Of a stretch of 64,000 nucleotides of DNA, positions 33,176 to 62,364 are shown piece after piece. Position 1 is the stretch's first letter. Each line of letters starts with the position of its first letter. The stretch spans positions 127,224,001 to 127,288,000 of the forward strand of contig OZ296650.1 in the NCBI GenBank assembly GCA_965655095.1, in the 5' to 3' direction. Source of the stretch: Haplodiscus bocki (taxonomy: Eukaryota). The notes under the pieces were generated by a model. It was not told the origin of the DNA, did not search any database, and saw nothing but the letters and a program-made list of their open reading frames with translations. The position numbers were made by a program, and so were the translations under genes.

Positions 33176-35442
33176 CGTTAAAGACTGAATTACCTTTCAA
33201 TTCAATTTTTAAACTGGAATTAATTGTCTTCAATTTTATACAAATACTGGACTAATTATTAAGATCCGTAGTACCTAAAAGAATTTCAATCATTTCTTTT
33301 CCCATACTTACATCTTTTCTATGGCGGGAAAGAAGAGTGTTTAAACGCCAAGTGAAGGTACAAAAAAGGGAACTTTTTTATTATTACTACAAAGCAGTAA
33401 ACGCCAACATAGGCGGGAAAAAACACATGTCGACCCATTTCCTTCCTCACTGGTTGCGTTCTTTCCATTTCTCGAACGAAATTTGGACGGATCTATTCCA
33501 TCGGAAATGGACATCAAAGTACATATTCTCGTACCGACATTGTATTTACCAGCAGAAACCAACTTGTATGAAAAAGTCCTTAAAGGGAAAAGATAATCAA
33601 TTGCAAGTCAAGCATCAATTTAAGGGAAAGTTAATGCCAGATAATAATTATCAGTTTTTATGCACCGTATTAACATATGACTTACTTTTTTTCTGTTCTG
33701 AAAATGAGGAAAAACTAGTGACATTAATAATTTGTTCCTCGTTCAAAGGAGTCTTCACTACTTTGTTCCAGAATTAATCCGTATTAACTAGTAATGACAA
33801 ACCTTCAGCTGAGAGGAAGTTTAAATTGAATACGGATTCAGCTGTCTTTGCACGGAGTTGCAGCGTGCATTTTTAGTTGAAGAGCATACTGATGTCGCGA
33901 GACTAGTAGTGATGGAACATTTACAGAACAAGGACTCACTCCTGGAGTCTTTCACGCTTTAATACAGTCGTATCAAGTTTAAATTAGAATTTTTTCACAC
34001 TGTTTTAATTAGCAAATATTCGGAATCGGTCAATCTAGTATACGTAGAAGGTGGATTTTTTAAATATTTAAATAGTATAAAAAAAGAAATTTATAATTAG
34101 CAGCTTTCACGTTAAAGTACTCTGTGAATATCTGTTTGTTCCCTAGCGGTTTCGTCCTTGTCTGGATCAGTTCGATATGGTGATCCGTATATTCACGGAT
34201 CACTTACTTGAGAGTTTTATTGATCATACCCAACAAATCAAATCTATGATTTTATGGAGGCAGTTCATTGATTTTTGCTGAGGGTCTGGGAATATTTTTT
34301 CCTGTGGAACTCTCTGACTACATACAGGCTTCACAGATGTGCTGCGACATCTGCTAAAGTGTTTTCTTTCGAAGCAAGACTGCAAGAACTATTAAAATAG
34401 TAAAACTGGAGAAGACCTGAATCTCTGGAAATATGATTTCTGTTGCCCATTATGCTTAATATTGATTGAGTTTTTCTCTATGGAAATGGAAAGTTGAGTG
34501 AAAGCGATTAAAAAGGAGGTGGCAATAAAAGTCAGACAAAATGCATGAAGTTTCAAGACTAATATCATCCTGATGTTCCTCGGAAAATTTCATGAAACTT
34601 TTGTCACTACAGCAATTTTGTAAATGGCTCGCCCACGATTTAAGGTCGGGACTTCATTTAACATAGCTACAGCAAAGCATTGAATTGTCCTTATGACACT
34701 ATTTTGAGTTGCTGAATCGCAACTGTTCTGAAAAACGTGAACATAAGCTGTCGGCCAATTTTGATGTACCCGGGTTTACTTACTACCATACAAAAAACAG
34801 GGGAATCATAGAGTGTGAGATATGGTGATCTTTGAAAAGATTAAAGTTAAAGAAAGTACCATAGAAGTTTATGGTAGCATGCAAGTCATAAAGAGACCAT
34901 ACTATAGTTTTGTTCTATGCAAGTTATAGACTGTACCATAGTGTAGCCATAAAATGGAAAAGTGTGCGAGTGTTTTTTTAGATTATGATAACGTATTCTA
35001 GTGAACAAAAATGCGACGACAAAAGACTCATGGAAAACAATACACTAAAGTGTGAAGTTCAAAACTTCTGTGAATAATTTGACTGGCGAACATAATAAGT
35101 GTCATCTACGTTCATTTTCGGTTGCCTAAAATTAAAAACGAGAATTTGTGATTTCCCTTTCCCGAAATGTATAGTCTACAGTAGTAACAGTGTTAACTGA
35201 TCAGACAGGGGGTGGGGGTGGTAGACCCTCCATGTATTAAGATAGGCTACAGCGAGCAAACTCGGTTCGGCAGGAGCCGAAAGCCGAGAAGGGTCTACCA
35301 CCCGAGCTGAGAACGTTTGGGTTTTTTTCGGCACTGTGATACTCAATTTTGATTGGCTGACGAGGTTTTAGAGTTTTTCGTGCTCGATTCTGATTGGCTG
35401 CCGACAAGAATTTGGTTTTGTGTTATATTTGGGTTTTTTCCT

Positions 35443-35650
35443 AATGTATTAAGATAGGGTATAGTTTCGGCAATAGATAGGGTATAGTTTCGGCAATGTA
35501 TTAAGATAGGGTATAGTTTCGGCAATGTATTAAGATAGGGTATAGTTTCGGCAATGTGTTATGATTGGTTCGTATTAAGATAGGACGGCAATGCATTAAG
35601 ATAGCGTAATGTATAAGGATATGTCTTGCAATGGAATAGGGTATTTTTGG
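35443..35650 (+). repeat. 29-bp tandem repeats (AATGTATTAAGATAGGGTATAGTTTCGGC) in the left TIR, mirrored at ~52630-52865
   Basis: Three perfect copies, one 23-bp shortened copy and further degenerate copies. Confidence 0.9.
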
Positions 35651-35861
35651 CAGTGTGCGACAATTTTCGGCACTGTGAAGTTTGTTGTTTGACTTTTTGG
35701 TCCACCCGCGCCAAGCCGGTTAATTATTCCGCCACCGGATAAATATTCTGCCGCCGTATAAATTTATGCGCCGGCTGCTGTCCGCTGAAGCTCACTTATA
35801 ATTTTTCCCCTAAGTAGTATAGTGTGAGCAGAAGTGGGGGGGGGGGGGGGGGCGGAAGATG

Positions 35862-35927
35862 AGGTCTCCCACGGGGATTCGAACCTGGGCGGACGGAGTG
35901 CCGGACGCCACAACTTTTTTTGAGCTA
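35862..35927 (-). promoter_or_regulatory. tRNA-like Pol III internal promoter module (A box and B box), left TIR copy
   Basis: Minus strand reads TAGCTCAA...GGCGTCCGGC...CAGGTTCGAATCCCCG. B box GGTTCGAATCC at 35885-35875. Confidence 0.55.
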
Positions 35928-35954
35928 TTTAAAAAGATTGTGGTAAAATTTCAA

Positions 35955-36072
35955 AAAGTTGATTAGAATGTATAACTAATACAAGACCACCAGGTAAAGT
36001 TAATTAGAGTGTATAAAACTACAAGACCACAAGGTAAAGATAAATAGAATTGATAAAACTACAAGACCACAT
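35955..36072 (+). repeat. ~40-bp tandem repeat x3 just beyond the pPolB stop
   Basis: TACAAGACCAC recurs three times at ~40-bp spacing, with ..GGTAAAG.TAA.TAGA between copies. Confidence 0.8.
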
Positions 36073-39000
36073 TCAAAGAAAAATTTTTAAATCTAAAGGT
36101 TTAGTATGTATTCCATCTTCTTCTACAAGACGTTTAGGGTAGAAATAAGACAATCCCTATTTTGTCTGTTCGTAGGTTGCAACGCTATGTTTCTTTGTTC
36201 GAAATCCTCTGTTGATTGAAGTAACGTTGACTGCCTCTTCTGAAACCTTTCGATACTTTGACGTGGGTCCATCTCCACAGTCTTCCAGAGTTCTTTTATT
36301 GAGTCCCTTAACACTGAATTTGTACTCGTTACTCTTTCAATCGTAGCAACAATATGTTTTGCCACACAAGCACAACATTTCGGAACACCTGAATTTTTCT
36401 TTAAACAGTCCCGGCTCTCTCTTATCATGCTTCTTGTGAGCAGTACAATATGTTCTTGGGACGAAGTTGCCCGTTGCATTCGCATTGAAGCTATATGTAG
36501 AGTCTCGCGGGCGTATTGCTTCCGATTCGTTTCTTTCCTCTGGGAGAATAATGTCTTTCAAGTTCTCTTCCGACAGAGCTAAATATAGAGAGTCGGTATC
36601 CATTTCAAGCTCTTCATATCTTTCGGTATCGCAAAACTTTTTAAAGAAGTTATATTAAAGCTCCAACATTCTGAGCTTAGCATATTGCAAAATGAAGAAT
36701 CCGACAACGATTGGTTTTCGATGCTCAATTTCTGACTCGACAAGTTCAGCCTCGTACAAATGATCAGTGATGGAGTTAGGTCGCTTGAAAAGTTTATTAT
36801 CAATTGCACTGTGAATCTTTTCATCGTTCAAATATTTTGTCACAGTTTGTCGACTACGATCCATGATCTGGTACCTATAGGAGCTGTTTGCTAAAAACTT
36901 CATTGCTTCAGCCACTACGCTTGAGTTGGGATTTTCATCTTGTTGTCTTCGAGCATTGACGGCAGTCTGTACAAAGCTAGTGAAACACTTCATGGGAGTA
37001 TACTCAACTAGTTAATGAATTTTTGTACATTTAAGACCCAGATGCAAGCAATAAAATGGTAAGGGAGTGATGATAGTTCCATTTTTTAGGTGTAAGCTTG
37101 ATATGAGCATTCTTCTTGGTTGTGACATAATCTTTTTTTTCTGCATAATCTTTCATCAAATCTCCGATATCATTTCTGCTTACAACAGTGTTTTTAAAAA
37201 TTGGGGGAAAATTGGCAAAATATGCCTTCAGATGTTCCAGAATTTTGAGGACGCATTGAACGTAACCAAGCAGCCTTCGACGCTTAATCTCTTGCATGAG
37301 CCGTTCTTCGCTGAGATGTAGCTGATAGGAGAAATTTGCTCGCAGTTGACTTTTTACTGTCGCATGGGTTCGGTATAATTCCCACCAATTGCACTCCCGC
37401 ATTTCAATAATTTTGTATCCTTTCTGTTGGATATCTTCTTTGCGCAATTGGTCTTGTTCCTTCTTTTTTATCCCTCCCATAATTTCGTTGTCAGTCAATG
37501 ACGGGCGGGTTTCCTGACATGGACAGTAGTGGAAATAACAACCCATTGCATCAAAGACAGTGTTACAATGGTTACAACTTCCATCAACGCTAAAGCAAAC
37601 AATCTTCTTTTGTCTACCAGTTGTAAAATTGCTTTCTATCCTACATTTTGGACGAATTCGTTGAAAATAAGAAAGGACCATGTTTTCGATGGAGCGTGTT
37701 TTGTTCTGTCGAGGCACGAATTTTTGAGGTTCAGAGTCATAGTTCCATCTTGTACACAATCCATGAAGCATTGGTTGACACATCGAATAGGGATGGAGTT
37801 GGCTTGCGTCTACGCTGACAACTGACTTGCACAACTTCGTTGATTTGTGGATAAAAGTTTCGCCAACCACAGCCTTGCGTGTAAACACAATGGAGGAACC
37901 ACTAACCATGTCTTCACGAATCTTCTCCAAGAAGTACCTGTCGCTTTCAGTAAAAGGGTAAAACTTTGAATATGTTGATTTATGGAGGCAAATGTTTGCC
38001 AAAATAGGTGAAGTACAACCCAACTTTAACATATCAATCTCCTTTTGATGGTAAAATTCAATCATTTTCTACATTGCTTCTAGGGTTGGAACAACATCTT
38101 TGTTATTGTACCACATGAGAAAGTCTTTGAAAGATTTCATTCCTTCGCTCACCCTGATGCTCCGCAATTATGCGTAAATTTCATCACCTGTTGGAGGTAT
38201 CTTGTTTAGTCGTAACCTGCATACTGCTTGCTCCGACGATAAACCGTTAGTAGTGAGGTTTTCGAAGTCACTGTAATCTTGTTCGAGAAGAGTAGTTTTA
38301 CGCAGTTTGCTAAAGAAAGAATCGTATTGAGGTAGTTCTTTGTTGTTCGACTTTTTTGGATGGTCGAACCACTCAAAGGGAAAAAACCTTCAGTTTCCTT
38401 TGTTTTGTTTTGTAAGCTTTGCGGAACGAATCAAGACTAGTTGCCCCACTAAAAAAGTTCATAATATCAAGTAACTGCACATCACCAAACTTGGAGGAAA
38501 CAAATTCATTAGCTTTTTGATAACTGTTGGTTCAATTTGTCGTTTGTTAACAAGAATTGGCAACAGATACGACTTGATCAAATTGATGTCATACTTTGCA
38601 CTGTTAAAACCAAAAACTGGCAACGTGTTACAATAGCGCTCAAAGTGTTCCTGCAAATCAATTAGTTGGTTTTTCTGCATTTGGAGAAACTGAGTAGATA
38701 ACTCCTTCTATTCCACAGTGTCGTTGAAATACTCGTCGTTGTCATAATCAATAACTCGTTCTCGTTGGTTGTGTCTTTGGTTGAGTGGTTCCAAGATACT
38801 AGAGAGTTTAATCTTGACTGCGGTTTCTACTTCAATAAAACTTAATTTCATTTGTGCTTTGCGTTGCGTTGCCAAGCCTTCAAGGGCACTGAAAAAAAGG
38901 ATACAAGGTGTCGAGGATCTGAATTGCAAAGAAAAATGGGTTCTGGTATTAGGTTTGAAGAAAATGAAACTGATATAGGGACATGTTTTCCAATCCATTT

Positions 39001-40426
39001 TATAGTTTCAGTTTCTTTATACGTCTCTTCCTTAACGCAAAAAGATTCTAAATCGGAAACGGCCAAGTTTTTAAACAACTTTTGATCCTCTCTGTATGGA
39101 ATTTTGAAAGAATCCAACTTTTCAAAGAGCGTTTCTCTTAACTGGTCTACATTCTTCGGATAAAGGTGCTTGACTCCCTCGCTACATGTAATCAAATGTC
39201 GCTCCAAATTTCCAGTCTTTGAAAAGATTATGTCACGTGTGCTGCGGTGAAAAGATTTGAAGAAGGAGTTCATGTCGCTGACGTAACAAACGCGATTGTT
39301 GTAACGTAACAGTTTGACGCTCTTTTCAAACTTTTGAATACTTCTTCGAGCTAGTTCTCCAATCATTTCTCCATCCATAAAGTCAATGTCATAAAGAACA
39401 AATTTGAGTTGCAACATCTCCACTTTCGGAATATCAGTCATATCAACACCCTGGAACTTTGATGGATCTGCTTCCCCACAATTGTTCAGGAAAAGGTTGA
39501 AAAACTTGGATGTTTCTTCTTTGGGTCTCTCAATTCCATGCAACTGGAGAACAATTGCTCTGAAGAGGCAAAGATTATCTTTGTGTGGTTTTTTCGTGTT
39601 CTGTTCGTAAGTGAGGCATTTCACATTTTGAGTTTTCAAGAGCGGTTCAGGTAGTACAGAATCTTCACAACCCATGGGTATATCTTTGGGCAGCGCTGCA
39701 AAATCTGTCTGGTTTGTCAGTTTCCAAAACTTCAATTTGGTTTTGGCTCTCTCTCGTGTACCAAGGTGAACAAAATCTATTTTCTGTAATTTCTTTTTGA
39801 GGTTGGTAAGTCGTCTGGTGTACACAAAGGTTTCGACCTCTCCATAACCGTATTGTTCTCGTGAGCATAAAAATAACCACACGATACATCTTCAAACTTT
39901 TTGAGAAAAAATCCAAACGCAAGGTTATCTTTGGCAGCGCATTTGAGTCTTTGAATACTGATTCCAATTTCTTATTAATCAAAGAGTTGTCGAAGGTTGA
40001 CATGGTGAAATTGAAAACACGATGTCTTCCTTTTTCAAACTCAGAGTCAACGAGGAAGTCTTGACATGCTTGGAGTTCTTCTTTCAGAGTTGCCTCGACA
40101 TCTTCAAAGAGGTTATTCACGTCAAATTCACCTGATTTCATCTGAATTCCATGCTCGTTTGTTTTGTGTTGTCGCAACGCATAAAAGCCAGAAAATTCTA
40201 TGAAAAAAATTTTAAACTTGTGTGCAATTTTCACTCGAGGTGTAGCATAATTTTTGGCAATATGATAATTTAAATCTTTTTTTGCTTTAGTAGAGAAAGT
40301 GGGACAATTTGCACATTACAATGTTCCACCACTGCAGCGCGATTTGTGTGGAGATAGCTGTTGCTTCGCTACTGAAGTTCCATAATTTCTACAAGTAACT
40401 TTAACATTTCGGTCCAAAGCAGGCAT
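36073..40426 (-). pseudogene. pPolB: Protein-primed family B DNA polymerase with N-terminal C2H2 zinc fingers, vOTU-like domain and VSR-like nuclease insert; multiple frameshifts and stops
   Basis: ExoI SDLES, ExoII GFNSAKYD, motif A VDASQLHPYSM, motif B KFLANSSY, motif C MDTDSL. VSR-like VDGSC..CNTVFDAMGCYFHYCPC. OTU-like DNLCLFRA...LLRYNNRVCYV. C-terminus DGIHTKPL. Confidence 0.95.
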
Positions 40427-40694
40427 TGTTTGAGATTTTTGGCAATTTTTGAAAGCAGAATAATCTGAAAAAGTAAGGCCTTCGCCAACTTGATTCTAGC
40501 AATGCAACAAAAACAATGGCGGTTAAATTGTAACAAAAATTGGTTGTTACCCCGAACCATATATGGAAAGATCTTTAATGGAGCTGTCAATCATTTCTTT
40601 CATCAATCAAACTGACAGCTGATCAAGACCAAAAATCAATTAAAAAAAACATTTTTTCTCTTCATGTTGTGGCAGCTTGGCTGGGAAAATTACT

Positions 40695-40885
40695 GAAGTG
40701 GAACAATTATCTCCTCAGGTGTAGACAGGTTGTTTGAGAAAAGCACTCACGTGGAACAAGTTCCCTTGATAAGGAGACAGCTTGTGTGGGAAAGTCAATC
40801 AAGTTGAACAAGTTCCCTGATCAGGAGACAGATTGTCTCAGAAAATCAATCCAACGAATCAATTATCATCCAAGTTCCCCTCGAA
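40695..40885 (+). repeat. ~50-bp degenerate direct repeats in the divergent intergenic region upstream of pPolB
   Basis: GAACAAGTTCCC(T)TGAT(A/C)AGGAGACAG at ~40754 and ~40806, plus weaker copies at ~40700 and ~40872. Confidence 0.7.
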
Positions 40886-41149
40886 TAATTTATAGTCAAA
40901 TGTCTATCATTTCCATAAAAGCAACAGAAAGATGTTTTGTGTACAAACTCCGTAGTCTAGTGGTTCAACGATTTTAACCACACCACCACCGTGCCACGAC
41001 TTAATTCAAAATTCGAGGTATTAAAACCTTATTGGGTGAAACAAAAGCTATTTTCGATTGACATTATCCCGATGATAACGAAACCGTGCTTTTACCACTA
41101 CTCCATTAATTCTGTCATTTTGTAACATTTATCGAAGTAAAAACAGTCA

Positions 41150-41740
41150 ATGTCTATAAAGAAGAAAATTCCAAGTTTAAGCAAATTTTATACACTTTAC
41201 GAAGAAGTTCCCGAAAGTTTTTTGGACGAAATTGACGTTGATAGTTATTTTTACCATAATACCTTGGACCTTGCCCTGATCGATAATCGAATTGTTCGAG
41301 TTAGCAAAGGTTCCAACAAAAAAATTTTTGCTTTGAAACGTTTTCAGTTTTGCAATTTGAAAAATCAACAAAGATTCATTCTTGAAGAGGAGGTGTCAGT
41401 TTCGTTAAAAGAACTTCCACCTAATTTGAACACTCGACGCCAGTTTTTGAAACAATACGATAAAGCTGTCTTTATCCAGCTTTATACAACTTACCCAAAG
41501 CAAAGCCAGAGATTGGTTTTACTTCATTTAAAAACGAACTATTTGCACATTATTTCTAAGACAATAAAGAACATGGCAACAGACAGATACGTCTTTCTCT
41601 TCGTTTTGAGCGTAACAAGGAGTGTTGTTTCTCCATCTAAAAGTTTCAAATTGTTGGTGAGCAGAAGTTTCTAACAGAAGTTATCAATCTATGACACTAC
41701 GAAGTGCATAGCTTTTACAAAAATCGTTACTATATTGTCT
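41150..41740 (+). pseudogene. Polinton accessory protein, possibly PC4/Whirly-like ssDNA-binding; frameshifted
   Basis: 174-aa ORF with beta-beta-helix pattern IFALKRFQF..QQRFILEEEVSVSLKEL; the pattern repeats in a shifted frame. Confidence 0.4.
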
Positions 41741-42170
41741 CAAAGTGTGGAATTACTGGTAGCAGTTATGACATCTAACTCAAGTATTCTTGCTCAGTTA
41801 CTTTACCAAGACCAAATTATAGTGGAACTCATCGGAGATGTGATTTGCTCAAATGAGAAATGTAGAGGCGAAGAGAGCGTATACATAACGAGCTCCGAAA
41901 AGATCAACAAGAGCACTTACGAATGTAAGCAATGCAAAGCTTGCACTCACGTGCTCAATATTCCTCTTAAGGATCAGAAACCATGTGTTACCTTGTTTGG
42001 TTGGACCTACTGCTTTACAAAAAAGACAAAGTTGGATTAAGAAAAAGAGAAACTTTCGCCTCTATTGCGACAGTGAATCAGCCAATCAAAACTCTCCAAG
42101 ACAAAAGCAGAAGAAGCTAATAATGAACCTGCTCCAAAAAAAGACAAAGATATTATCAAATTTGGAATAA
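41735..42170 (+). pseudogene. Small Cys-rich (zinc-binding) accessory protein, frameshifted
   Basis: CSNEKC...YECKQCKAC...KPC in the ORF track. Confidence 0.45.
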
Positions 42171-42186
42171 TCGTGCCACGCTCCTA

Positions 42187-42876
42187 TTGGCTGTTTTACT
42201 ACAACATAAATTCACTTTTGGATTCATTTTTCAAACTTTTCTCAAACTAACAACACGCTCTTTTACAATCAACACAATTAAATTTACAGTCTCCAACAAC
42301 GGAACACAGTGGATTTTGGACTTTGTTCCAGATTCGGTAGTTTTGTCCGTAAAGGATCTAGATGACAACCTTTCAATCAGTTCCCTGGAATTTCCACTGG
42401 CAGCTTGGTCTTGGTTGCTGTCCCAAAGACAAGAATTTTTGGACAATCATTTAGCTCTAGTTTCCATAACTTCCAACCAACAGGGAACATTTGAAATGAG
42501 AGAAAAAGTACTCTCCAGTGTTGGAAGACAAGATACCGACACTAGGGGATACGAGCTATCCGATCTAGAAGACATTGAATTCAGTTGGGAAGATCCTGCA
42601 GCGGATATGGACAGTGTTTATCGACTTGGAACTGCTAGCCCATTTTCCCCATCCATCTTTAACAATTTTCAGATGGAGGGATCAACCGCTGCCAACCCAA
42701 GAATTGTTGACGATGAGGAGGACAAGGAGAATTCAGCTCCAACAACAACAACACCAGAGACTGAGCGTCCAACCGAACCCACTAGATTACTGAAAAGTCG
42801 TCCATTTGGGACTCCACTAGAAAATGTGCCTGACTCTGTATACATGACTGTGTTTCGTTATTTTTTTTGTAATTGA
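42187..42876 (+). CDS. Acidic, low-complexity accessory protein with a KEN box
   Basis: 229-codon open frame containing ELSDLEDIEFSWED and DDEEDKENSAPTTTTPE. True start uncertain (ATG at ~42496 possible). Confidence 0.5.
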   Translation: MAVLLQHKFTFGFIFQTFLKLTTRSFTINTIKFTVSNNGTQWILDFVPDSVVLSVKDLDDNLSISSLEFPLAAWSWLLSQRQEFLDNHLALVSITSNQQGTFEMREKVLSSVGRQDTDTRGYELSDLEDIEFSWEDPAADMDSVYRLGTASPFSPSIFNNFQMEGSTAANPRIVDDEEDKENSAPTTTTPETERPTEPTRLLKSRPFGTPLENVPDSVYMTVFRYFFCN

Positions 42877-43254
42877 TACATTGTATGTGTTTTGTATATA
42901 CAGGTAATTGAATTTTTTTTTCTTTTTTATCAAAACTTTTAAAAACTAGTCAGACATGTGTGAGATGAAAACAGTTCTGGAGTCCGTTTGTTTGATCTGA
43001 CTTGTAACAGCTAGTCTTTGCAGTTATTGGGTTTATCCAGAGAAAAAAGTGGGACAAGACAGCGAGAATCAAAATTCAAAATCCTTGCGAAAATGAATAC
43101 AAGAAGTATTGTTTGAACGGTGGCGAATGCTATTATCTAATTGACGAAGTTATTGTAGGCTGCAGTTGTACATGGTTTAACGGAGGAAATTGTTGTGGAA
43201 AGTATATGTGGTGGACATAGGTGAGACTTTAAAATAAGTTATTTTTTACACAAA

Positions 43255-43715
43255 ATCGTACGTGCTTTAAAATTTTTAATTCATAATCTGACATGTTATA
43301 AAATTTTTGTTTTAAAATCTGACACGTTTTAAAAATTTTGTTTTAAAATATTACGAGTTTTAAAAAATTTAAATCAAAATCTGACACGTTGTAAAATTTT
43401 GGTTAAAAAACCTGCTTTTTAGAAATATTTTTTTCGTCAGAATTGTGCTTTTTAAAAATAAACAAAAATTCCAAAATTCGTCTATTTTACGGGGTAAATT
43501 CAATCAAAACGTGATTTTTTGAATGCATGTTTTTGTTCAAAATCTGATTTTTAAAAACCATTTCTTAAAACAAAATCTGACACGTTGTAAAATTTTTGAT
43601 TTAAAATCTGACACCTTGTGAAAATTTTGTTCTAAAATATGACGCGTTGTGAAAAACTTTATTTCAAATCTGACACGTTGTAAAATTGTTTTTTTAAAAT
43701 CTGACCAGGCTTGAA
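43255..43715. repeat. 31-bp minisatellite (AAAATCTGACACGTTGTAAAATTTTTGATTT-like), two clusters of ~5 copies
   Basis: TCTGACACGTT core at 31-bp spacing in 43255-43410 and 43540-43715, between convergent genes. Confidence 0.88.
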
Positions 43716-43809
43716 ATGTTTTGAAACGGAATCTCATTTTCAACTACCATTTTGTATTCTTTGGGAACAATCATTACTCTTACTAACTGTAACAAAAAAA
43801 AACTGTTTG

Positions 43810-44427
43810 TTAAAAAGATTTTATTTTAAAATAAACTAAATTACTGTCATAACTAACATGACCATCAGGAAAAAAATCTACAAACATTGTTAGTTCCAAT
43901 TCAAACTTAGTCTTTTTGGTTTTTTCAATTCTTTCTACAAACACTGAACTACTGGTCTGCAGTGATTTGTTCTTTTGGAGAGCATTCATAAAATATTGTT
44001 CAAACTTTTTCTCAAGAGCCTCTTTTTTGCAACGTTCGGCATTTTGTCCACTCTTCTGTTTATTTGGGACAAGAGATTGCTCTGCGCACATTGTCAAACA
44101 CATTTCCACTCTTTGCAATAACTTTTCCGCTGAATCGGTACTTGAACAGGGTATAAAGACAGTCCACGTGTTGATAGGTGAAACAAAATGTTTCCAATTT
44201 ATGTAGCAGAAACTCAATTTCTTCAAGTAGTGTATTGTGATAGTTACAAGCGGGTAAAGAGCACGGCTTATCGTCGTGATGGGCGATGCAGTAGTCTTTA
44301 CAAACAAGGTTTTTTTCAAATGTTTTTGCAGAAATAAAGAAACTTTTTTCTGAAATTTCTCCGTAAAAGCTGGCGATTGTTTGTAAAATATAGGCTGCCA
44401 TCTGAGTGCTGCGATAAAAAATGACAT
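43810..44427 (-). pseudogene. Unknown Polinton accessory protein with a Cys/His cluster, frameshifted
   Basis: Overlapping ORFs 43810..44427 and 44060..44401 (CKDYCIAHHDDKPCSLPACNYH). Confidence 0.45.
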
Positions 44428-44756
44428 AAAGGGTCTGAAAACAACAAAGTTTTGAATTACAAAGACTATTATCTAATATGGAAATTACCTACATATATGG
44501 AAATGTGCTTGTCTACCTCCCTGCCTCCCGTACGCCTACGGCTCCCTAGCGCTGTCGGTCCCTTGCATTCGCAATTCACTGAATTGGTAAGAGTATTCCA
44601 TAAATGGAAAAGTTGCCATAAAACGAAATCATGCCTAATCTGATTGGCTTTAAATACCAGTTTGTTTATCTCCCAAAATCATTTTTTCACCCTTTTCTCC
44701 AGAATAAAGTTGATCTTCTCCTTCTCACTTCTCCAAACAACAAAATTGAATCTGAA

Positions 44757-45328
44757 ATGGCATACAACACTAAAGCAACCTTGGACAAACTGGCTTGCAC
44801 CGACGATGTGGACTTTGGTAAATGTCAAGACACATTTGGACGAATTTCTTGATCCAAAAACTTATTCGACCACTTGGACGTGAAACACAAAGTGTTCAAA
44901 AGGGACAAGAACAAACAATTTCGACTGGCACAAAACTTGACAATGGGAGAGGCAGACTCTAATCAGTTTATTCGACTGAGGAATCAGCTAGTTCTTGCAG
45001 TCAGAGACTTTAGCAAAGACGATAATCTGCCCTTGTGCAAATGAAACTACTAGAAAAAGACATGGAAATGGAAGAGCAGCTCAAACTTACACATGAAGTT
45101 GTAGATCGACCACACAGAAAGATTTGCGTGCCTATGCTGCACCACAATGTATAGAAACCAGAGACTTCATATGCTCGAGTGCAATTGTTTGTAGGAAAAA
45201 AGGACGAAAAAAAATTCAATCAAGTTGTTTATGTGAACTATAACCTTGATGAATTTGTTTATGTACTTGATGTAATGAATTCTGTATATCATAAAGTTTT
45301 TGCTAACGAACCTCTTTGTAATGTTTAG
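44757..45328 (+). pseudogene. Accessory protein with two tandem PC4/Whirly-like repeats
   Basis: MAYNTKATLDKLACTDDVDFGKCQD...LDVKHKVFKRDKNKQFRLAQNLTMGEAD.NQFIRLRNQL, then ARVQLFVGKKDEKKFNQVVYVNYNLDEF. Contains stops and a frameshift. Confidence 0.5.
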
Positions 45329-45386
45329 TAACAAGTAATTGCAACAATTCACTCATTACTCTCATTTTCTTTCCATTGCTGTCAGA

Positions 45387-45805
45387 ATGAGCTGGAACAT
45401 TCGAGAAAACAGAAACCTATTTTTTAAATTCAAATCAAATTTGGACTTTATCATGTTGCACTAACAACACCCAAAACTTCTACCGAAAAAATTACCTTAA
45501 CCTTAGTTGAAATGCAACAGTTGCCTAAAATTGGAAAAGTGGATTTCAAGAGTGAACTTTCTTGCCTAAAATCGACAATATACAATGGTAGGAGAAAATT
45601 ATGCAGAGGTTTCAAGACTGATATGGACAATTTGAGTTTTGTAGTTTACCGTTACCGAAACAATACATACGTCAAATACACTGAATTGGAGCTGAAAGTG
45701 ACTGAATACGCAAAAGTTCTTTCTAAACGAGTATATCTATTGAGTTATATTGACGTATTCTTTAGGCGGTGCATTGTATTGGATGAAACAACAGTTCATT
45801 ATTAA
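45387..45805 (+). pseudogene. Accessory protein, possibly PC4-like
   Basis: LSFVVYRYRNNTYVKYTELELKVTEYAKVL; 5' part frameshifted. Confidence 0.4.
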
Positions 45806-45822
45806 AGTAAATTTCATCAAGA

Positions 45823-46226
45823 ATGGATGTTCTTTTCCTCATGAGCATTTTCCGATTGTACCCGGGATGAAACTGTCATTTGAACACAATAGTGTTCGAA
45901 AAAACCCATTTCTAAGTGCATGTTTTTGTTGGGATTCTAGACTTTGTTTACGTGAGATGGATCAAAAAATTAAATTTGGTAGAACCATTGGCTATGGAGA
46001 CTCGTACTTGGACTCTGTAATCGGCTACTTCAAATTATTCAGACTACATGCAATATTACACGATGCTGCTGGAGCAATTCGATTACAAACCGTTAAAGGC
46101 CTTGGCTACTGCCACATGATTGGTCGACGTCCAAACTATTGTTTGCTTGGTCACGTGACTGGACTATTATTTTGTCTTTACGTAAAAATCTTTCTAACTT
46201 CCATTTTCAATATAATCGACTTTTGA
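45823..46226 (+). CDS. Small protein with HAILHD motif (phospholipase A2-like HD signature)
   Basis: FRLHAILHDAAG...GYC...CLLGHVTGLLFC in an open frame. Confidence 0.5.
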
Positions 46227-46698
46227 ATCAGTATATTTTTGTATTAGATTTTGAGCCAACTGAGAAAAACAAATTAAGGGACTGGGACTTCTTATTGATG
46301 GTTCTGTACATGAATTTTCATTTTGTCCGCCAAAGACTTTTAAACCTAATAAACAGACAACATGGAACACAAGTCATCTACATGGAATTGCGTGGAGTAG
46401 TGGAATGTTGGAATATTAGAAGCTGTTTGCTGTGTTTTACGACATAAAAGTAATGAACGCAGAACTGTTTGCTGAAGGGTTCGAAAAGTGTAGATTGTTG
46501 ACCAGATTTCTCGGACAAAATATAGAAAGTTTGGATGACCATGGTTGCCTAAAAGTTCAAGATCTTGTTGGAGAAGGAAAACCGAACAGTTCGTGGATCT
46601 GCTCTGGTTACCCTTTCCGACACAAAACAAGGCTTCACTGTGCCGAGAAGAAAGCAAAAAAGTATGGAGACGGGGCTATGAAACATTTATATTTGTAA
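46227..46698 (+). pseudogene. DEDD/DnaQ-like 3'-5' exonuclease-fold protein with Cys/His C-terminus
   Basis: Reconstructed across a frameshift: VLDFE...HLHGIAWSSG...GFEKC..L...ESLDDHGC...WIC...H...HCAEKKA. Confidence 0.6.
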
Positions 46699-46807
46699 AT
46701 TTTGTACGTGTGTATTGTATTTGTGTTTACTACTATTTTAATTCTTTCAACTCGACATTATTTTTTCTACAGCCTTCATTTTAAGAATCTTGAGCGTTCC
46801 AGACTAG

Positions 46808-47068
46808 ATGCCTGATCACACTGATAATATCAATTTGGTTAAAATTGTCTTTGACGATCAAAACGTTGAAAGGAGATCGTGGTCTCGTTTGGGACAAACC
46901 TGTTCTGGGTCTTTAATTGAGCTTTTGTCCCAATTCTTTGTAAAACTCTTGATTGTTTGCGGTTGCTTTTGGCGTATACATCTGGCCTAGACTTGTGATG
47001 AATCTACAGTTTGGGTAGGAATCTTGTGCAGTGCAGCAGGATACGTTTTACTTTCACCAAAACTATGA
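46808..47068 (+). pseudogene. Small two-TM membrane protein; its stop overlaps the ATPase start (ATGA)
   Basis: Hydrophobic segments LLSQFFVKLLIVCGCFW and TVWVGILCSAAGYVLLSPKL*, one internal stop. Confidence 0.5.
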
Positions 47069-47725
47069 ACAAGTTGACTTCTACAAAAAAACCGCATTTT
47101 TGTATCTTTGGTTGGACCGAGCGATTCTGGCAAACCGTACTTGATTCATGAGTGGTTGAAAGTTGGAACATTTCAACCCAAATTTGACGAAATTTGTTTT
47201 TTCTTTCAACACCCTCAACCACTCTATGGAGTCATGCAAAAAGAAATTGATGATCTTGAGTTTGTTCAATGTGTACAGTTGGAATTTATTAACTCTTTGA
47301 AAAATAACGGTACTAAGTATCTGCTCATTTTTGATGACGCATCCGCAAAAATTTGCAACTCTAAGGAAGTTGTGGACATTGCTACCGCTGGGAGACATCT
47401 CGATTTTAGTACTATATACATTAAACAACTTATTTCATCAAAGTAAACTAGGAAGGGATTTTGAGCTGCAAAACACACATATTGATCCTTTCAAGTCACC
47501 TCCAGATGTGCATCAAGTTGCTACAATTACTGTACAGTTGGGACTTGGATCAGCTCTCATTGACTGGTATCGGGATGCAACGTCTGTACCTATTGGCTAT
47601 TTATTGACTGATTTGTCTCCACGAACAGACGGCTGCTTCGTTACTCCACCAATAGCGGAATTGTTCCATCAAAATTTTATGTAGCCGACATTTTGAAGCA
47701 TTTCAAATATTTCGACGACTAGCAC
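47065..47725 (+). pseudogene. ATP: FtsK/HerA-family (A32-like) genome packaging ATPase
   Basis: Walker A GPSDSGK(P), Walker B YLLIFDD, arginine finger TAGRH and downstream LFHQSK..RD.ELQNTH; frameshifted. Confidence 0.93.
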
Positions 47726-47739
47726 ACGAAATCTCTCTA

Positions 47740-48020
47740 ATCTCCAAGCATTCCAGCACTTTTCCCTCGCATGCAAAATTCAAATTCTAGAAACTTATCC
47801 AAGATAATTTATCCGACTTCTCAGCGAATGCATCGTCAACCTACTGCAAGGAAAATTGTCAGAAGTAAAAAGAAGTCACGTCCTAAAATACAGAGACAAA
47901 TTTCTTGAACTGTCTTTAAAAATAACAACTTGGAAGCAACGAAGAAGTCTAATTTCGTCGCAAAAAGGATTATTGCTCATAAAAACAATTTTCCCCTTCG
48001 TCATTACTCATTTGTCTTGA
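47740..48020 (+). pseudogene. Small basic conserved Polinton protein (putative core protein)
   Basis: FIRLLSECIVNLLQGKLSEVKRSHVLKYRDK...WKQRRSLISSQKGLLLIKTIFPFVITHLS*. Confidence 0.55.
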
Positions 48021-48021
48021 G

Positions 48022-48437
48022 ATGGGACAGTTTGTTCTAGTACCTTTTTCTGTCTACAACAGCAGCAACAACCCAATCATTGTCACAAAACAAGAACCAC
48101 CCAAATACAAATCTGAGAAAACTCCCACGTACCACATAGATACGTTAAAAACTGAAATAAACCAACAGTTTAGCACAAGTGCTTCCCCTTTAGTAAACAG
48201 AATTTTAGAGTCTCCTCGCATCAAGCTATCAAATTCTAACGCTTTGATCCCGGATGGAATACAGACAGGTAAGCTGTTGAAAGACTTGGCACAGCATTTG
48301 AAGCGCAAAAACGTAACCACACTTGATATTTACTTTACTTTACTTTACTTGACGCAGCCAGCATCACTCCCGACATTGTTGTCAACAGTCGTGCCAAGGG
48401 TAAAGAAAGAGGAGCTTGGATCCCTTTCAAAATCTGA
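48022..48437 (+). pseudogene. Conserved Polinton hypothetical protein upstream of the integrase
   Basis: MGQFVLVPFSVY...YFTLL/DAASITPDIVVN..AKGKERGAWIPFKI* once an extra TACTT is removed. Confidence 0.55.
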
Positions 48438-49323
48438 ACGACAAAAATTGCAGAAACTTTACACTCAAGGATTTGCAGCATATGGTTTTGTGCGCCATTT
48501 GGCAAAAGCAACGGAACTCTCTCCGTCAAAGGTCAGAGAGTTTTTACATTCAAAGACTTCATATACTAGGTTCACACAAGCAACACGTAAATTCAAAAGA
48601 ATGAGAGCCTTCGCGAGATTCAAAGGTGAATTTTGGTGTATGGATCTAGCGTATGTTGATAAATTGGGAAACGACAATAATGGTGTAATGTATTTACTAG
48701 TTCGCTAAGACTTGTCTGACAGAACCGTAGTTGCAAAAGGAATAAAGACAAGAGACTCGAAGGAAACAGTCAAGACATTTTCAAAAATGATTATCAAAAA
48801 GAATAGAGCAAAAAAACTTTGGGTCGATCAGGGGACAGAAATTGCTGGGGAGTTCAAGAAACTTTGCAGCGTTGAAGGAATAGAAATTTACTCTACAATG
48901 AGTTAGACGAAGCAGCTTTTGCAGAACGTACAATACGGTCACTCAAAAACATTTTGTATTGCTACATGGAGGATTATGGGTACAAGTATATTCATAAATT
49001 GCCTCAATTTATTGCAACAATGAATTCTAGAAACAATCGCAGCATAGACATGAAACCCAACCACGTCAAGAACTCTGACTTTATTTCAAAACTTTACAGT
49101 AAACCACTCAAAGAATACAAAAGCCCAAATTTGGAATTGAATACAGAGCATTTCCAAGTAAGATTTACCCTTCAGGAAATGTTATAGACGACAATTTACA
49201 CAAGAAATATTTGCAATTGTTGCCATTGCTACTGGAAAACCTCCAACATATACAATCGAAGACGAACAAGAAGAAGTTATACGTGGGAAATTCTACAAGA
49301 AGGAACTAATTAGAGTCATTTGA
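48391..49323 (+). pseudogene. INT: Retroviral-like (RVE, DDE) integrase
   Basis: WCMDLAYVD (D1), LWVDQGTE (D2), AFAERTIRSLK (E), C-terminal RGKFY..EL. Stops and frameshifts; no chromodomain seen. Confidence 0.95.
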
Positions 49324-49325
49324 GT

Positions 49326-50135
49326 ATGGATTCACTTACAGTCGAGTTGGTTTCCAATGCATCTTCACAGCTCTTTCCAAACAACACGCTCAGTTCATTT
49401 ACATTTTTTTTGCCGGAACAAGTGAATTTGGACGGACAATGGGAGGTGGCAATTTCCGACATTTCTTACCCATCAATGTATCAAAACCTTACAGAGGGGA
49501 AATTTATGTTTTACGATGAGAAACTCTCCAAAACAACAGAGGCTTACTATCTTGAACGCGGACTGTATTCCTCCATAACTGACATTGTGGAAGCTATGAA
49601 TACTATCATACAAGAAAGAAACAAACACAGAGACACTTGCATCACAATCATAGTTAGCAGGGTAACGCAAAAAAAGTAAAGGTGTATCTAGCGAATGAAG
49701 AATCGAGTCTAGCAATTTTAAGTACTAACTTGGGACATATATTTGGAGGAGATGTGAGAAATGGTTTGGGAATACTCATGTCTGGGAAAGGACCGCATGA
49801 ACCAACATTTGCTTACGATATTGTTCGCATCCATTCACTCATGTTTTACACGGACATTGCAGAGTACAATATTGTTGGAGACACAAAGGCGCCTTTGCTC
49901 CGTTGCTTTCCATTCATATCCAAGCTCAAATCTGGTGACACATTAACTACTGGACAATACATGAACTATCAGACTTTCAGCAATCTTCAGTTTAGACGAT
50001 TGTTGAAAAACTCTTTTCACAGCATACACAATGATTTGCGAGACACGTCTGGTAAGAAGATTCCCTTTGTCTCGGTGGGAACAACTCGACTTGTTCTCAA
50101 GTTTAGAAAAGTTTCTGACATTCATTTTGTATTAA
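49326..50135 (+). pseudogene. PX: Minor capsid protein (penton, single jelly-roll)
   Basis: LVSNASSQLFPNNTLSSF..LPEQVNLDGQWEVAISDISYP ... YTDIAEYNIVGDTKAPLLR ... DLRDTSGKKIPF..G...LVLKFRK; one frameshift. Confidence 0.9.
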
Positions 50136-50149
50136 AATTAGTGTGTAAA

Positions 50150-50500
50150 ATGGTTGCATCAAACACTCTTGAACTTTCCTACTACAAAGGTATTGGACGT
50201 CAAAGAGAACGTGGTTCTGGAGCTCGTGCGCAAGTTATTGGGAGAACCGCCATTCCTTTCTTGAGCAAATATATCTTCCCAGCTCCAAACGCGTGGGTGC
50301 TGATTTGTTGGAATTTGCAGTCCCAGAGGTAGCTGATGTTGTTAGCGTAAAGAAAACTTTCCAAACTGCTGCCAAAAGCGTAGGAACACAGACATTGAGA
50401 AAACAACTTGGAGGTGGCAAGCGGAAGAGAAGCATTCCAGTTAAAAATTTAAGCGAAGCAGTCGGTAACGCAGAGACATTCTTACTAATATGGCAAAGTA
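50150..50500 (+). pseudogene. Small Gly/basic virion core or membrane-active protein with adenain-type Gly-rich motifs
   Basis: YYKGIGRQRERGSG..AQVIGRTAIPFL...GADLLEFAVPE...LRKQLGGGKRKR. Confidence 0.6.
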
Positions 50501-50503
50501 AAA

Positions 50504-51855
50504 ATGACAGATCTGAATAATTTTCGGTACCAACATTTTGTTGCAGTTTCTGGGAATCCTGGTGTGAAAGTCCCAGTTTTGGACAATGTGTTGTCTTCTA
50601 ACGAACAAGAAATTTATCCCACTACATCTCTTCATGAAAACAGCGATGAGTTTGAATTCCAAACTGATCGCAAGGTTTACGTGGGTTTGCGACAAACATA
50701 TCTTGCTCTAAAAATTAAACTAGTTAAAGGACGTGGTTTTGATACTAAAAAAACAACAGAAAAGACAAAATAGCACAAAGAAGACACTGTTTTTACTGAA
50801 ACAGGTGACGATGACGTGGAGTTGATAGAAGAGGACCAGCGAGTGTCTCATATTACTCATGTGAACAATATTCTGCATTCCATTTTTTCTAATGCAGAAT
50901 TGTACATCAACAACCAGCAAATCTACAATTCAAACGCACTTTATGCTCACAAATCTCACATTTCTAAAAAATTCAAAAATACATTGTCAGATTACAAGGG
51001 AGTCTTGCATTGTGAAGGGTATGACTATGAAGAAGATCCAGAGAATCTCCTCGAAGGTCGATTTTTCAGTAGAATGAAATTGTACAGTAGACCTGACGGT
51101 TTCATGTCGTACGGTAAGCTGGGCATCGACTTTTTTACAACTTCGGAGTTACTATATCCAAATATGAATGTAAAAATCAGACTAATTCGAGCGCGACCAA
51201 CTTTCTACACAATAGGCGAGAATTTGAATTTAGCTTGGGTATTGCGGACTGTTCTCTGTACACTCGGCGCGTGATGCTCAAAGAAGACTATCACAAAAAG
51301 AGAATGTCTCAACTAGCTTATGCTCCAGTTGAGTAAAACTACATGGAAACGTTGGCAAAGACTTTTTTCGTTCATGCACGACAGAACCTATTCATTTAGG
51401 AAAATATATTCAACAATGAAGCTATACGTCGATTAGCCATTGCAATGAATTCAAACTCTGCCTTTACCGGCTCCTTTGCAAAGAACCCATTCTGATATCA
51501 ACAGCTTAATCTGAGAGATTTTAGAATACTCAGAGGAGGATAGCCAATTGTGCACCACGATACGACAGATAATTGTTGCTTGTATGTCATAACAATGAAA
51601 GCATTGAACTTTCAAGTTGACATTCCATCAATTCCAATTAATAATTTCAACAACCCTTACGTACTAGTGTTTGATCTGACTTCAATACAAGATGCTACTG
51701 AGCACTGTCACTATACGGAATTAATTGGAGAACCACTGAGATTGGAACTATACTTCAGTTCAGCTCTAGAAAGTATCACTGAAGTCATTGTATTGGGTGA
51801 ACGTATGTCTTCTGTTGCAGTCGACATGTTTGGTGTTGTGGGAAAAAATCTTTGA
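50504..51855 (+). pseudogene. PY: Major capsid protein (double jelly-roll, hexon-like)
   Basis: EFEFQTD..YV.LRQTYL, VNNILHSIFSNAELYINNQQI, LLYPNMNVKIRLIRA, AFTGS..KNPF, LVFDLT, LRLELYFS..L. Several stops and frameshifts. Confidence 0.92.
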
Positions 51856-51856
51856 G

Positions 51857-52255
51857 ATGGATAACACTTCCCTTAAACAAATTGTTAACCCTATACTTTT
51901 GCTCAAGTATCCGTACACGGGATCGTTTCCCTCAGACTTTGTTCCAAACTTTCCGAAAGACAGGTTTGTGATTGTCATCACACAGCCTAGCAACACGCCA
52001 GGAGAGCATTGGGTAATGGTTGCAAAATTTCATCATGAAGTGTATTTCGCCAATTCTCTTGGTCTATCCATCAACAATTACACGTTTCTAAAGCAGAATT
52101 ACAGCCAAATGGTTCGGACAAGACTACAAGATCATCCCAGTGTATGCGGTTTCTACACAATTTATGCAGCATTTCATTTGTTCAAGCTTCAACAAGAGGA
52201 GATAACTGGTGTTCATGATGTTAATGTACTCTATTTTATAAGTAATTGCTTGTAA
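51857..52255 (+). CDS. PRO: Adenain-like cysteine maturation protease; frame intact but catalytic Asp appears mutated to Asn
   Basis: GEHWV (His), YFANSLG (expected FxDSxG), LQ...SVCGFY (oxyanion Gln and Cys). Confidence 0.92.
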   Translation: MDNTSLKQIVNPILLLKYPYTGSFPSDFVPNFPKDRFVIVITQPSNTPGEHWVMVAKFHHEVYFANSLGLSINNYTFLKQNYSQMVRTRLQDHPSVCGFYTIYAAFHLFKLQQEEITGVHDVNVLYFISNCL

Positions 52256-52307
52256 TTGATTACCAATTTATTGTAAATGTCCAATTTATACATTGTATTT
52301 GTTCAAC

Positions 52308-53131
52308 TTTATACATTCTAATTAACTTTTTAAAACTTTACCAAAATCTTTTTACATAGCTCAATCACAAAAAAAGGTATGGCGTCCGGCACTCAGTACG
52401 CGCAGGTTCGAATCCCCGTAGGAGACCTCATCGTCCTGCCCCCCCCCACTTCGGTTCACACTATACTACTTGCGGGGAAAAATTATAAGGAAGCGTCAGC
52501 GGACGGCAGGCGCAGTAAAAATTACACGGCGGCAGAATAATTATCCGGCGGCGGAATAATTATCCGGGCGGGCGCGGGTGGACCAAATGTTCAAAAAAAA
52601 ATCTCACAGTGCCGAAGATTGTCGCACACTGCCAAAAACACCTTATTCCATTGCAAGACATAACCTTATACATTAAACTATCTCAATACATTGCCGTCCT
52701 ATTTTATTACGAACCTATCTTAATGCATTGCCAAAACTATACCCTATTTTAATACATTGCCGAAACTATTCCCTATCTTAATACATTGCCGAAACTATAC
52801 CCTATCTTAATACATTGCCGAAACTATACCCTATCCATTGCCGAAACTATACCCTATCTTAATACTTTAAGAAAAAACCCAAGTATAACCCAAAACCAAA
52901 TTCTTGTCGGCAGCCAATAAGAATCGAGCAAGAAAAACCCTAAAACCTCGTCAGCCAATCAGAATGGAGTATCACAGTGCCGAAAGAAAACCCAAACGCT
53001 CTCGGCTCGGGTGGTAGACCCTTCTCGACTCTCGGCTCCTGCCGAACCGAGTCGGCTCGCTGTAGCCTATCTTATTACATGGAGGGTCTACCACCCCCCC
53101 CCCCATCTGATCAGCTCACACTCTTACTACT
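52308..53131 (-). repeat. Right terminal inverted repeat of Polinton 1
   Basis: Reverse complement of 35180-35975; ends ...CTCTTACTACT followed by TSD GTCTAC. Confidence 0.93.
52357..52428 (+). promoter_or_regulatory. tRNA-like Pol III internal promoter module (A box and B box), right TIR copy
   Basis: TAGCTCAAT...GGTATGGCGTCCGGC...GCAGGTTCGAATCCCCG. B box at 52405-52415. Confidence 0.55.
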
Positions 53132-54505
53132 GTCTACAGTGATGTACACAGTCGGTCGACAAAGGCATAAGTCTTTCTTTCTCAGCCAAAACTCGGCAAG
53201 TTAAACTCTGAAATGTGCTGGCGGGCATTCTCCTGGGTATTGAAGTTTTCAAGACCTTTGAATTACTCAGAACTATGAAAGTAAGAAATTGGAAATTGTT
53301 TATCGGAAAAAAAAATTCAAGAAAAACATGAAAATCATTGGATGACCATACAAAGAAACATTGAATTCATTAACTGGCCATACATATAGCTGACAGAGTT
53401 TTCATACTATGACCATAGAAAAAAAACAGGAAACTAATGGCATTACCATAAGCTGTTTTTTGCATGGCATTTTATGGTGCTTAGTATGATTTGCATGTCG
53501 AGTCAACCCGGGTAATTCATTTCATTACAACTGCGATATTTTTTAGTAAGTTTTTTACTTTCAATTGTGGTTGTAAATTCACAGCCAAGTTTTTCTGTTT
53601 TGTTTTTTAACGTGCTTTTGAGAAAGGTTAACAACCTTTTGTTTGAGTTTTTGACACCCTAACCAGACCAGCCAGTCTCATTTCTGTATTGTGAAAAAAA
53701 GCGGATGAGAACGTTATATTATTTACGTTTAGTATTATTGCCTCCATTCTCGGCTTGCCGATACCTGGTGTTGTAAACTGTCACCCTCATCTTGAGAAAG
53801 TGACCTTGATTTAGTACCAGAAGTATTATTAGACCTCATGAGAAAGGGACACAACAAGCAAATTTAGTTGAAGAATAATTCTCTGAAATTTACTGCTTCA
53901 TTTCATTTGGTTCCAGTACGATCTCAGTAAAAACTATTTCTATACGAAAGTTTTCAATCAACCCCGGTCAGAAATTTAACACGTCTATAAGCCTAACGTA
54001 TCCGACGAGAAGGCATTTGTTTGTGGGAATTATAGGTGTTTTCGCCTGTGATTCCATGTTGCATGCAGTTTGGATCGATAAGACATTTTCTAAAGATTTT
54101 ATTTTTGCTCGCATTAGCATTTTAGAAAATAAAACAAAAAACAGTTCAGGGGTCGAAACTTACTCGAACTTTTTTCTATGACAAGGACCGGGGAAAAGAA
54201 GAAAGGGGGCGTTGTCTCGTAGCAAAATAACGGCGTTCAGTGGCGTTTTTCCGAATTCAGTGCGGTGTACCGGTCTGTCGCAGCAAAATTTCGCCTTTGA
54301 CAAACCTTAGTCTTGTGCATTTAATTTTTAAAGGTCTCGTCTGAAGAAGGTCACTAAACACTAAAGCGACCAGATCAAAGGGGTAATATATATAGTCTCT
54401 CAGCAACCAACAATTGAGACGGTTGGCTAGTCCGGATGCATTCAACTTCGTCAAGTGTTGAACTGCAGAGCAAAACTGAGGTATAACATTCGAGTAGCAT
54501 GGCAA

Positions 54506-61500: not shown

Positions 61501-62364
61501 TGTTTAGTTCATGAAAATTTTCTTTATAATTTGCAACTCTGTTAGGATGATTATTATTACAAAGATGAAGACTAGCTAATATAGACCAGATAAAACAATA
61601 TTTACAATTTTTTTCATTATTCAAGACAGCGTTTGTTCTCAAAGGAATTTTAACATAATTTAAACCATTCAATTCACCAGTTTTATAAAAATATATTGTC
61701 ATTGAATTTAATTTATCAAAGGGCCATCCAAAATCTTTCATTTCTTGTTGCTGTATTTGATGTTCTAATGGGGATTTGACATCGATATTATTGATATCTG
61801 TTTCTGTTAAGTTTTGATTAATATTCAAATTAATGTACAATTCAGTTTCATCTAATACTTGATTATCTTCATCTTGTTTATCAAATCTAGCTGAGAATAC
61901 TGTTTGATATTTGAATTTATATCGATTTTTTAATCTGGCATAAATAACAGATAATTCTTTCATGATTTTTTTAATATAACGAACTTCAATTCCAAATTCA
62001 AGATATTTTGGTGTAATAGTTAATTCAGAATTAGCATGATTAATATGATGACCATCTAAGTTAATTTTGAATCCCACTTTCAAATGTCTATCAGTGAAAT
62101 AATAAGGATTAGGCAAATTTTTAGCTAATTCTTTATTTAATTGCTTATCATCTAGTTTAATATTTCCATTGCTATTTGTTTTAATGATTTAGGATTATAT
62201 ATTCTTTTGATTTTATTTTGAATAGGTTCTTAAAATAACCATTAATCTAGTTTTATCATTTCCTTTTGTTTTATATTTTCTAAATGTTTTTTACTTCTCA
62301 AATATTTTACATAAGATGCTTTATGAACATCAACATTACAAATTTCACATTTGCGGCTTTTCAT
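58505..62364 (-). pseudogene. pPolB: Protein-primed family B DNA polymerase with N-terminal zinc finger, vOTU-like domain and endonuclease VII insert
   Basis: CEICNVDVHKASYVKYLRSKKH (ZnF); KYCFIWSILASLH...NHYILI (OTU-like); IYADFEA (ExoI); VRDH.HLTGKYRGPAHSKCN (EndoVII); FHKFSNYD (ExoII); VDANNL.G.SM (A); KLLNNAFYGKTMENVRNR (B); YMDTGSF (C); DKRFYINNIETIPW*. Confidence 0.95.

Follow-up and report, generated by a model that had tools for sequence, protein, structure and literature searches.

A probable composite terminal inverted repeat in a Polinton, holding the captured end of a second family with a tRNA-Ser fragment

The tRNA-like module described in both terminal inverted repeats (TIRs) of a Polinton in the window (the whole stretch of 64,000 nucleotides analysed here) is a real feature, but we reinterpret it. 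Our best reading is a Polinton TIR of composite make-up, in which a captured foreign end bears a tRNA-Ser fragment. On the evidence of the sequence, the B box and the inner ACTACT that follows it are the true end of a distant Polinton family, family B, held internally by two other families, A and C. We put at about 0.6 the probability that the tRNA-Ser piece is a passenger in this captured end and not a working Pol III gene.

The element in the window belongs to family A. Its parts, and those of the module, are as follows (coordinates, strand, feature).

35174..35179, +: left target-site duplication, GTCTAC
35180..53131, no strand: decayed Polinton/Maverick, "family A", 17,952 bp, with AGTAGT...ACTACT ends, TIRs and a 6-bp target-site duplication
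35180..35975, -: left TIR, ~800 bp, 85% identical to the right TIR over 833 columns
35813..35900, -: putative captured family-B end in the left TIR, with the B box at 35885-35875 and the inner ACTACT at 35818-35813
36088..40315, -: remnant of protein-primed DNA polymerase B (pPolB) in at least four pieces, by tblastn
47087..47630, +: packaging ATPase remnant (Pox_A32), by tblastn
48415..49308, +: rve integrase remnant, by tblastn
50567..51849, +: putative major capsid gene remnant, labelled from position and resemblance, no Pfam match
51857..52255, +: adenain-like protease remnant; weak Peptidase_C5 match in a sister copy (L096), E 0.003, below the cut-off
52309..53131, +: right TIR, pairing with the left TIR
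52357..52364, +: A-box-like word TAGCTCAA, in family A's own AT-rich inner TIR, without the closing GG
52390..52470, +: putative internal copy of the family B end, short form, 70/79 nt identical to a family B copy (L161)
52399..52415, +: match to the variable arm/T arm of host tRNA-Ser, 17 nt identical, containing the B box (52405-52415)
52465..52470, +: inner ACTACT, internal here but the real terminus in family B, 66 nt from the B-box start in both
52471..53131, +: family A's own outer TIR, with GC repeats, 29-nt repeats, the C-run and the real terminus; layout as in family D, which has no B box
53132..53137, +: right target-site duplication, GTCTAC

The gene remnants were located by tblastn with family-B proteins matching DNA_pol_B_2, rve and Pox_A32. 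The stretch labelled as capsid (50567..51849) is presumably such a gene, from its position and its resemblance to Polinton capsid genes. Polintons/Mavericks are recognised by their TIRs, AGT/ACT ends, 6-bp target-site duplication and core genes (extracts of PMC8097293). At 35180-53131 we find (AGT)2/(ACT)2 TIR ends and the 6-bp duplication GTCTAC, together with remnants of pPolB, the rve integrase, the ATPase, the protease (a weak match) and the capsid gene (an inferred label). In its AGTAGT/ACTACT ends, 6-bp duplication, TIRs, pPolB, rve integrase, ATPase, protease and length (17-18 kb) the element resembles the Polintons/Mavericks and adintoviruses of PMC8097293 and PMC8502044 (extracts), but it differs from them in its TIR, which would be composite and contain, besides a tRNA-Ser piece, the end of another family as an internal copy. 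In the extracts of these papers, tRNA is not mentioned in the first and once, for other viruses, in the second, and VA RNA is mentioned in neither. Family A is large, with 2210 first-look candidates for the module, 40 of which were scored.

The perfect B box, GGTTCGAATCC, lies at 52405-52415 (+) and in identical form in the left TIR at 35885-35875 (-), as the preliminary description had it, and both copies point toward the ends of the element. The inner terminus had been set some 55 nt beyond the B box; at that place there is indeed an ACTACT (52465-52470 and 35818-35813), but it is internal and not an element end, the real ends lying 727 nt (right) and 706 nt (left) from the B-box starts. The words of the motif quoted in that description are present too, but two of its gaps had been shortened, as TAGCTCAA and GGTA are separated by 11 nt, not 2, and 11 nt, not 4, precede GCAGG. 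GGTA occurs in the right window copy and in none of the other 30 aligned rows. A strict B box was found by chance in 356 of 20000 shuffled TIRs. The motif is family-wide, and the B box is found in families A, B and C; the 145 exact matches to a 23-nt B-box pattern include many inverted pairs ~16 kb apart. The consensus GKTTCRANNCC is matched in 25/28 A, 14/18 B and 13/25 C ends, one copy (L076) being missed by the B-box pattern in this count and in the A-box survey below on account of a one-base deletion.

Some ends depart from the common layout. The module is joined directly to the outer terminus via the C-run in L076 and occurs twice, 661 nt apart, at the end represented by L058/L059; extra TIR units are stacked at some ends (L002, L005, L012, L035 and L058/L059), and six copies (L072, L073, L081, L084, L089 and L098) have C-rich short-repeat expansions of up to ~140 extra nt in the spacer upstream of the B box.

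A pattern search for the tRNA-like part returned 10 places, of which seven are host tRNA-Ser genes and three are Polinton ends. The match to tRNA-Ser measures 17-18 nt in the window (17 exact), 25 nt exact in one sister copy (L069) and 26 of 27 nt in another (L124), where it starts in the variable arm, spans the T arm and extends into the acceptor strand. Among 400 random pieces of the element the longest match was 12 nt, and the observed match exceeds them all. A host tRNA-Ser gene, at its 3' end, is thus supported as the source of the B box, which upholds the tRNA-like origin first claimed and pins it to one host tRNA. A pattern with the tRNA-type tail gave 209 exact matches, and the 30 loci read were 20 Polinton ends and 10 tRNA genes. 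The tail in the window is of a second type, with another sequence over the 10-11 nt that follow the B box; it was tried as the 3' end of a second tRNA and gave 0 matches. The host tRNA sample comprised 63 scored loci of 137,939 candidates.

The absence of a complete cloverleaf, also noted at the outset, is confirmed: ARAGORN found none in the window or in any Polinton locus submitted and detected host tRNA-Ser genes in the same runs, and Rfam gave no tRNA match in the window, its four weak matches all lying outside the TIR. Nor is the segment a SINE fragment unique to this copy, the motif being family-wide and, among the matches listed, confined to Polinton ends and tRNA genes. Of these, all 30 loci of one pattern search lie within parts of TIRs, the 30 loci of a second comprise 20 Polinton ends and 10 tRNA genes, and the 20 loci of a third are without exception family C TIRs running into C's outer TIR. 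Two further likenesses were dropped. GGCGTCC resembles the tRNA-Ser anticodon stem, and the word GGCGTC is found in the family's own GC repeats as well; for a primer-binding site, the match ends one base before the end of the acceptor stem, beyond which the tRNA sequence is not continued. The host tRNA genes themselves lie in tandem clusters (Ser, Lys and Arg) with many degenerate copies (L061-L063, L111-L120 and L165-L192).

The module is the true element end in family B, where it is bounded by the target-site duplication AATGCT in one element (L123/L124) and CACGTT in a second. It is found at 16 of 18 family-B elements located via the position of the capsid gene; for the remaining two (L154/L228 and L160/L229) the end was not found in two tries. 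Families A and B are identical at 78 of 81 nt of the module (in a young A copy), against 46-47% amino acid identity in the capsid protein and a different gene order. Family C has 65-69% nucleotide identity to the window and holds the captured end after the GC repeats, family A before them; both 3' tail types are found in each of A, B and C. The different TIR positions and the shared tail types thus suggest separate captures of the B end into A and C, followed by repeated exchange. In one A-type TIR (L044) ~300 nt of the right end of family B (80%) are retained. Another copy (L041) was considered as a case of the inner end serving as terminus and rejected, since its partner end continues to the outer TIR, indicating a deletion.

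The passenger reading would account for the composite TIR in four steps. The first is seen in family B itself, where a match of 27 nt to host tRNA-Ser, at the 3' end of the tRNA, lies in the last ~70 nt of the 160-bp TIR. A family-B end would then have been joined into the TIR of an ancestor of family A, either by the integrase or by free-end invasion (the join exactly at ACTACT is compatible with both and fits them equally), after which most of the B element would have been lost and the result copied to both TIRs; a separate capture of the same kind may have taken place in family C at another position in its TIR. The shared tail types suggest that the tract was subsequently exchanged between families more than once. 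Finally, a deletion between two 14-nt direct repeats, which the structure of the window copy matches, would have given the short form, probably as a later event, and have moved TAGCTCAA to a tRNA-like distance from the B box. Binding of TFIIIC to the perfect B box is possible as a by-product.

Both TIRs have a perfect B box and no working A box, which would also fit a different role, that of a B-box-only putative TFIIIC site of the ETC type. The tRNA piece would then have been kept, and the end captured twice, because the integrated element would be shielded or looped by TFIIIC bound to the two TIRs. We regard this as possible but unlikely. In its favour, A, B and C, taken as families, all keep the B box intact, while the tRNA sequence on both sides of it has changed. 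Conservation was compared in 28 A ends chosen by the protease gene and 8 B ends chosen by the capsid gene, loci picked by B-box patterns being excluded. Rare changes in these ends amount to 11/395 in the B box and 62/2946 in the rest of the module (p = 0.36, with low power), and columns of shared polymorphism to 1/11 and 7/94 (p = 1), so that extra conservation of the box is not significant by either measure. The sole shared polymorphism within the box is an A/G (16:18) at a free position, the only one to vary. Fixed differences between B and C number 0/11 in the box and 5/76 outside it (four in the 15 nt just upstream and one in the tail; p = 1), and in one tail type the acceptor-side tail of the tRNA has been replaced with the B box unchanged. 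These three observations count against the passenger reading, and an advantage could lie behind the capture of this end on two separate occasions. Departures from the common base in family C are 7.3% in the B box, 7.2% in the terminal 22 nt and 12-14% in the flanks, which also speaks against a passenger, in loci chosen with a B-box-containing query and so biased. Most of the variation is decay of dead copies, which leaves low power to see selection. The B box is thus not detectably better conserved than its neighbours in comparisons of little power, the direction of the B-C difference favouring constraint.

Related families in the same genome with intact capsid frames speak against a TFIIIC site, the B box being absent from their ends (0/10 and 0/20). 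In family D and its close relatives, despite the same TIR layout, none of 10 right ends has a B box in the TIR; four of these ends have a one-mismatch match inside the protease gene, without the invariant A, and three hold other internal ACTACT ends (L146-L148). One of these types of internal end, with 831 first-look candidates, represents another large Polinton family, and a strict B box was likewise found at none of its 20 loci read (L193-L212); a search for its donor gave internal copies only among 20 loci, a point against the passenger reading. Internal ends thus recur both with a B box and without one. Families A and D, with similar TIRs and the B box present in one and absent from the other, form a natural control by which the TFIIIC question can be put directly to the test.

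There are precedents for B boxes of this kind. IR-L and IR-R, the fission yeast inverted repeats that surround a 20-kb domain, have five B boxes each and are bound by TFIIIC without Pol III (extracts of PMC7474672); the B boxes of ETC sites likewise bind TFIIIC without Pol III (extracts of PMC3395662), and TFIIIC sites are carried by repeats in C. elegans (extracts of PMC6950938). The Polinton TIRs resemble IR-L/IR-R and the ETC sites in having a B box without a working A box, in inverted repeats around ~20 kb. However, as far as the extracts of PMC7474672 and PMC3395662 go, those systems have either five B boxes in each repeat or an extended consensus that is shared and conserved among species, and binding of TFIIIC has been shown there, whereas here there is one B box per TIR, a putative TFIIIC site and not significantly conserved; moreover, IR-L/IR-R favour silencing within their domain rather than its protection (extracts of PMC7474672). 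A wider version, which we hold to be quite unlikely, is that families swap ends, that one end won twice by virtue of its B box, and that TFIIIC at both TIRs loops or insulates the element, which would give hundreds of paired sites ~16 kb apart across the genome.

An explanation unrelated to Pol III would be that the whole 160-bp TIR of family B, tRNA piece included, was kept as a cis element of its end, either a replication origin or an integrase site. The tRNA piece lies 46-72 nt from the family-B end, and in adenovirus ITRs host factors bind that zone. The even conservation of the whole module, with ~2% rare changes throughout, and a distance to the end that is fixed except for the C-run agree with this. 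However, two unrelated sequences occur within family B itself over the 11 nt that follow the B box, and in families A and C 600-700 nt separate the module from the end, with copies continuing to the outer end. We consider a cis element very improbable.

The remaining question is that of a Pol III gene. An A-box-like word had been reported about 40-50 bp upstream of the B box, and TAGCTCAA is found there (52357-52364 and 35927-35920, 48 and 42 nt upstream), but the 12-mer lacks the closing GG. We surveyed 30 A ends chosen by the protease gene, of which 29 were measurable. The closing GG is missing from the A-like 12-mer in 29/29; the distance from this word to the B box is 45-48 nt in 4/29 (the window included) and 102-247 nt in 25/29, with a T4 or longer run in between in 25/29. 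The TTTTTACATAGC context of TAGCTCAA is common to 10/10 of the B-box-free family D ends, so that the A-like word and the B box derive from different elements. In family B and in long A copies a second A-box candidate, TAGCTCCCGTGG, stands 63 nt ahead of the B box; it lacks the conserved AR, a T4 comes after it, and the window has lost it by deletion. Host tRNA-Ser genes are followed by T4 runs, and a T4 or longer is found within 29 nt after the B box in 7/29 A ends; in the window the first T4 is at +297 (right) and +747 (left), in agreement with the original remark that no T-run terminator is near. Twelve folds gave z from -1.0 to +1.9, with no stable fold.

Adenovirus VA RNA genes combine conserved A and B boxes with a T4 terminator and a stable fold of three domains (extracts of PMC7589676). 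As far as those extracts allow comparison, the module shares with them the tRNA-type B box, in a related class of DNA virus, but has the B box only and is located in the TIR; a conserved box B is found, but neither a box A at constant spacing nor a T4 terminator nor a stable hairpin fold. A small Pol III RNA gene (a VA-RNA analogue), with TAGCTCAA as A box in the short form or TAGCTCCCGTGG in the long form and in family B, is scarcely credible despite its perfect B box, the tRNA-like spacing of the short form and the few copies with a T4 close downstream, and the claim is to be dropped unless RNA data appear. A search of RNA data sets with a young family-A right end gave no listed match and counts neither for nor against transcription.

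The capture of a family-B end has its nearest counterpart in the Polinton-like viruses and virophages, for which TIR sharing and a model of end turnover have been described (extracts of PMC11296320). The two cases are alike in TIR DNA shared between unrelated elements and in chimeric ends. They differ in that genes and TIRs are replaced in that model, which is hypothetical, whereas here a longer TIR retains within it a non-coding end of 70-130 nt and the donor family is in the same genome (extracts of PMC11296320). Donor and recipients are found together in one genome here; Polinton families whose capsid proteins are only 47% alike would appear to exchange terminal DNA, and long TIRs may be built by stacking the ends of other families, end exchange having previously been proposed as a model (extracts of PMC11296320). 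In a literature survey of titles and the openings of abstracts, which covered few subscription papers or Repbase reports, we came across no report of a B box or tRNA fragment within Polinton TIRs, or of ends from other families held internally.

No related loci were found in viral contigs. In the X5 contigs (organism B) the protease and outer TIR are covered, depth over the module is zero at 82% likeness, a loose end immediately precedes it, and no contig joins across, for which reason we do not treat this as evidence; X6 gave trace depth only. For the family B genes, X5 gave only distant matches.

Elsewhere in the window, positions 1-24700 are occupied by a tandem array of ~2,041-bp units in at least 12 copies, 85-97% alike and without an Rfam match. 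An AT-rich stretch (24% GC) at 58900-62200 (-) holds a distant pPolB-like remnant (21% identity, E 5e-7) and is probably another Polinton-type element. The family A element also has an EGF-like accessory gene at 43008-43220 (+), frame-shifted in the window copy and present in a sister copy (L275:2275-2538) as an 87-aa frame with a hydrophobic N-terminus. Its product matches EGF/TGF-alpha chains in the PDB (best E 4e-7), with no match in Pfam; growth factors of the EGF type are encoded by poxviruses. The gene is present in family C copies as well and absent from the family B stretches compared.
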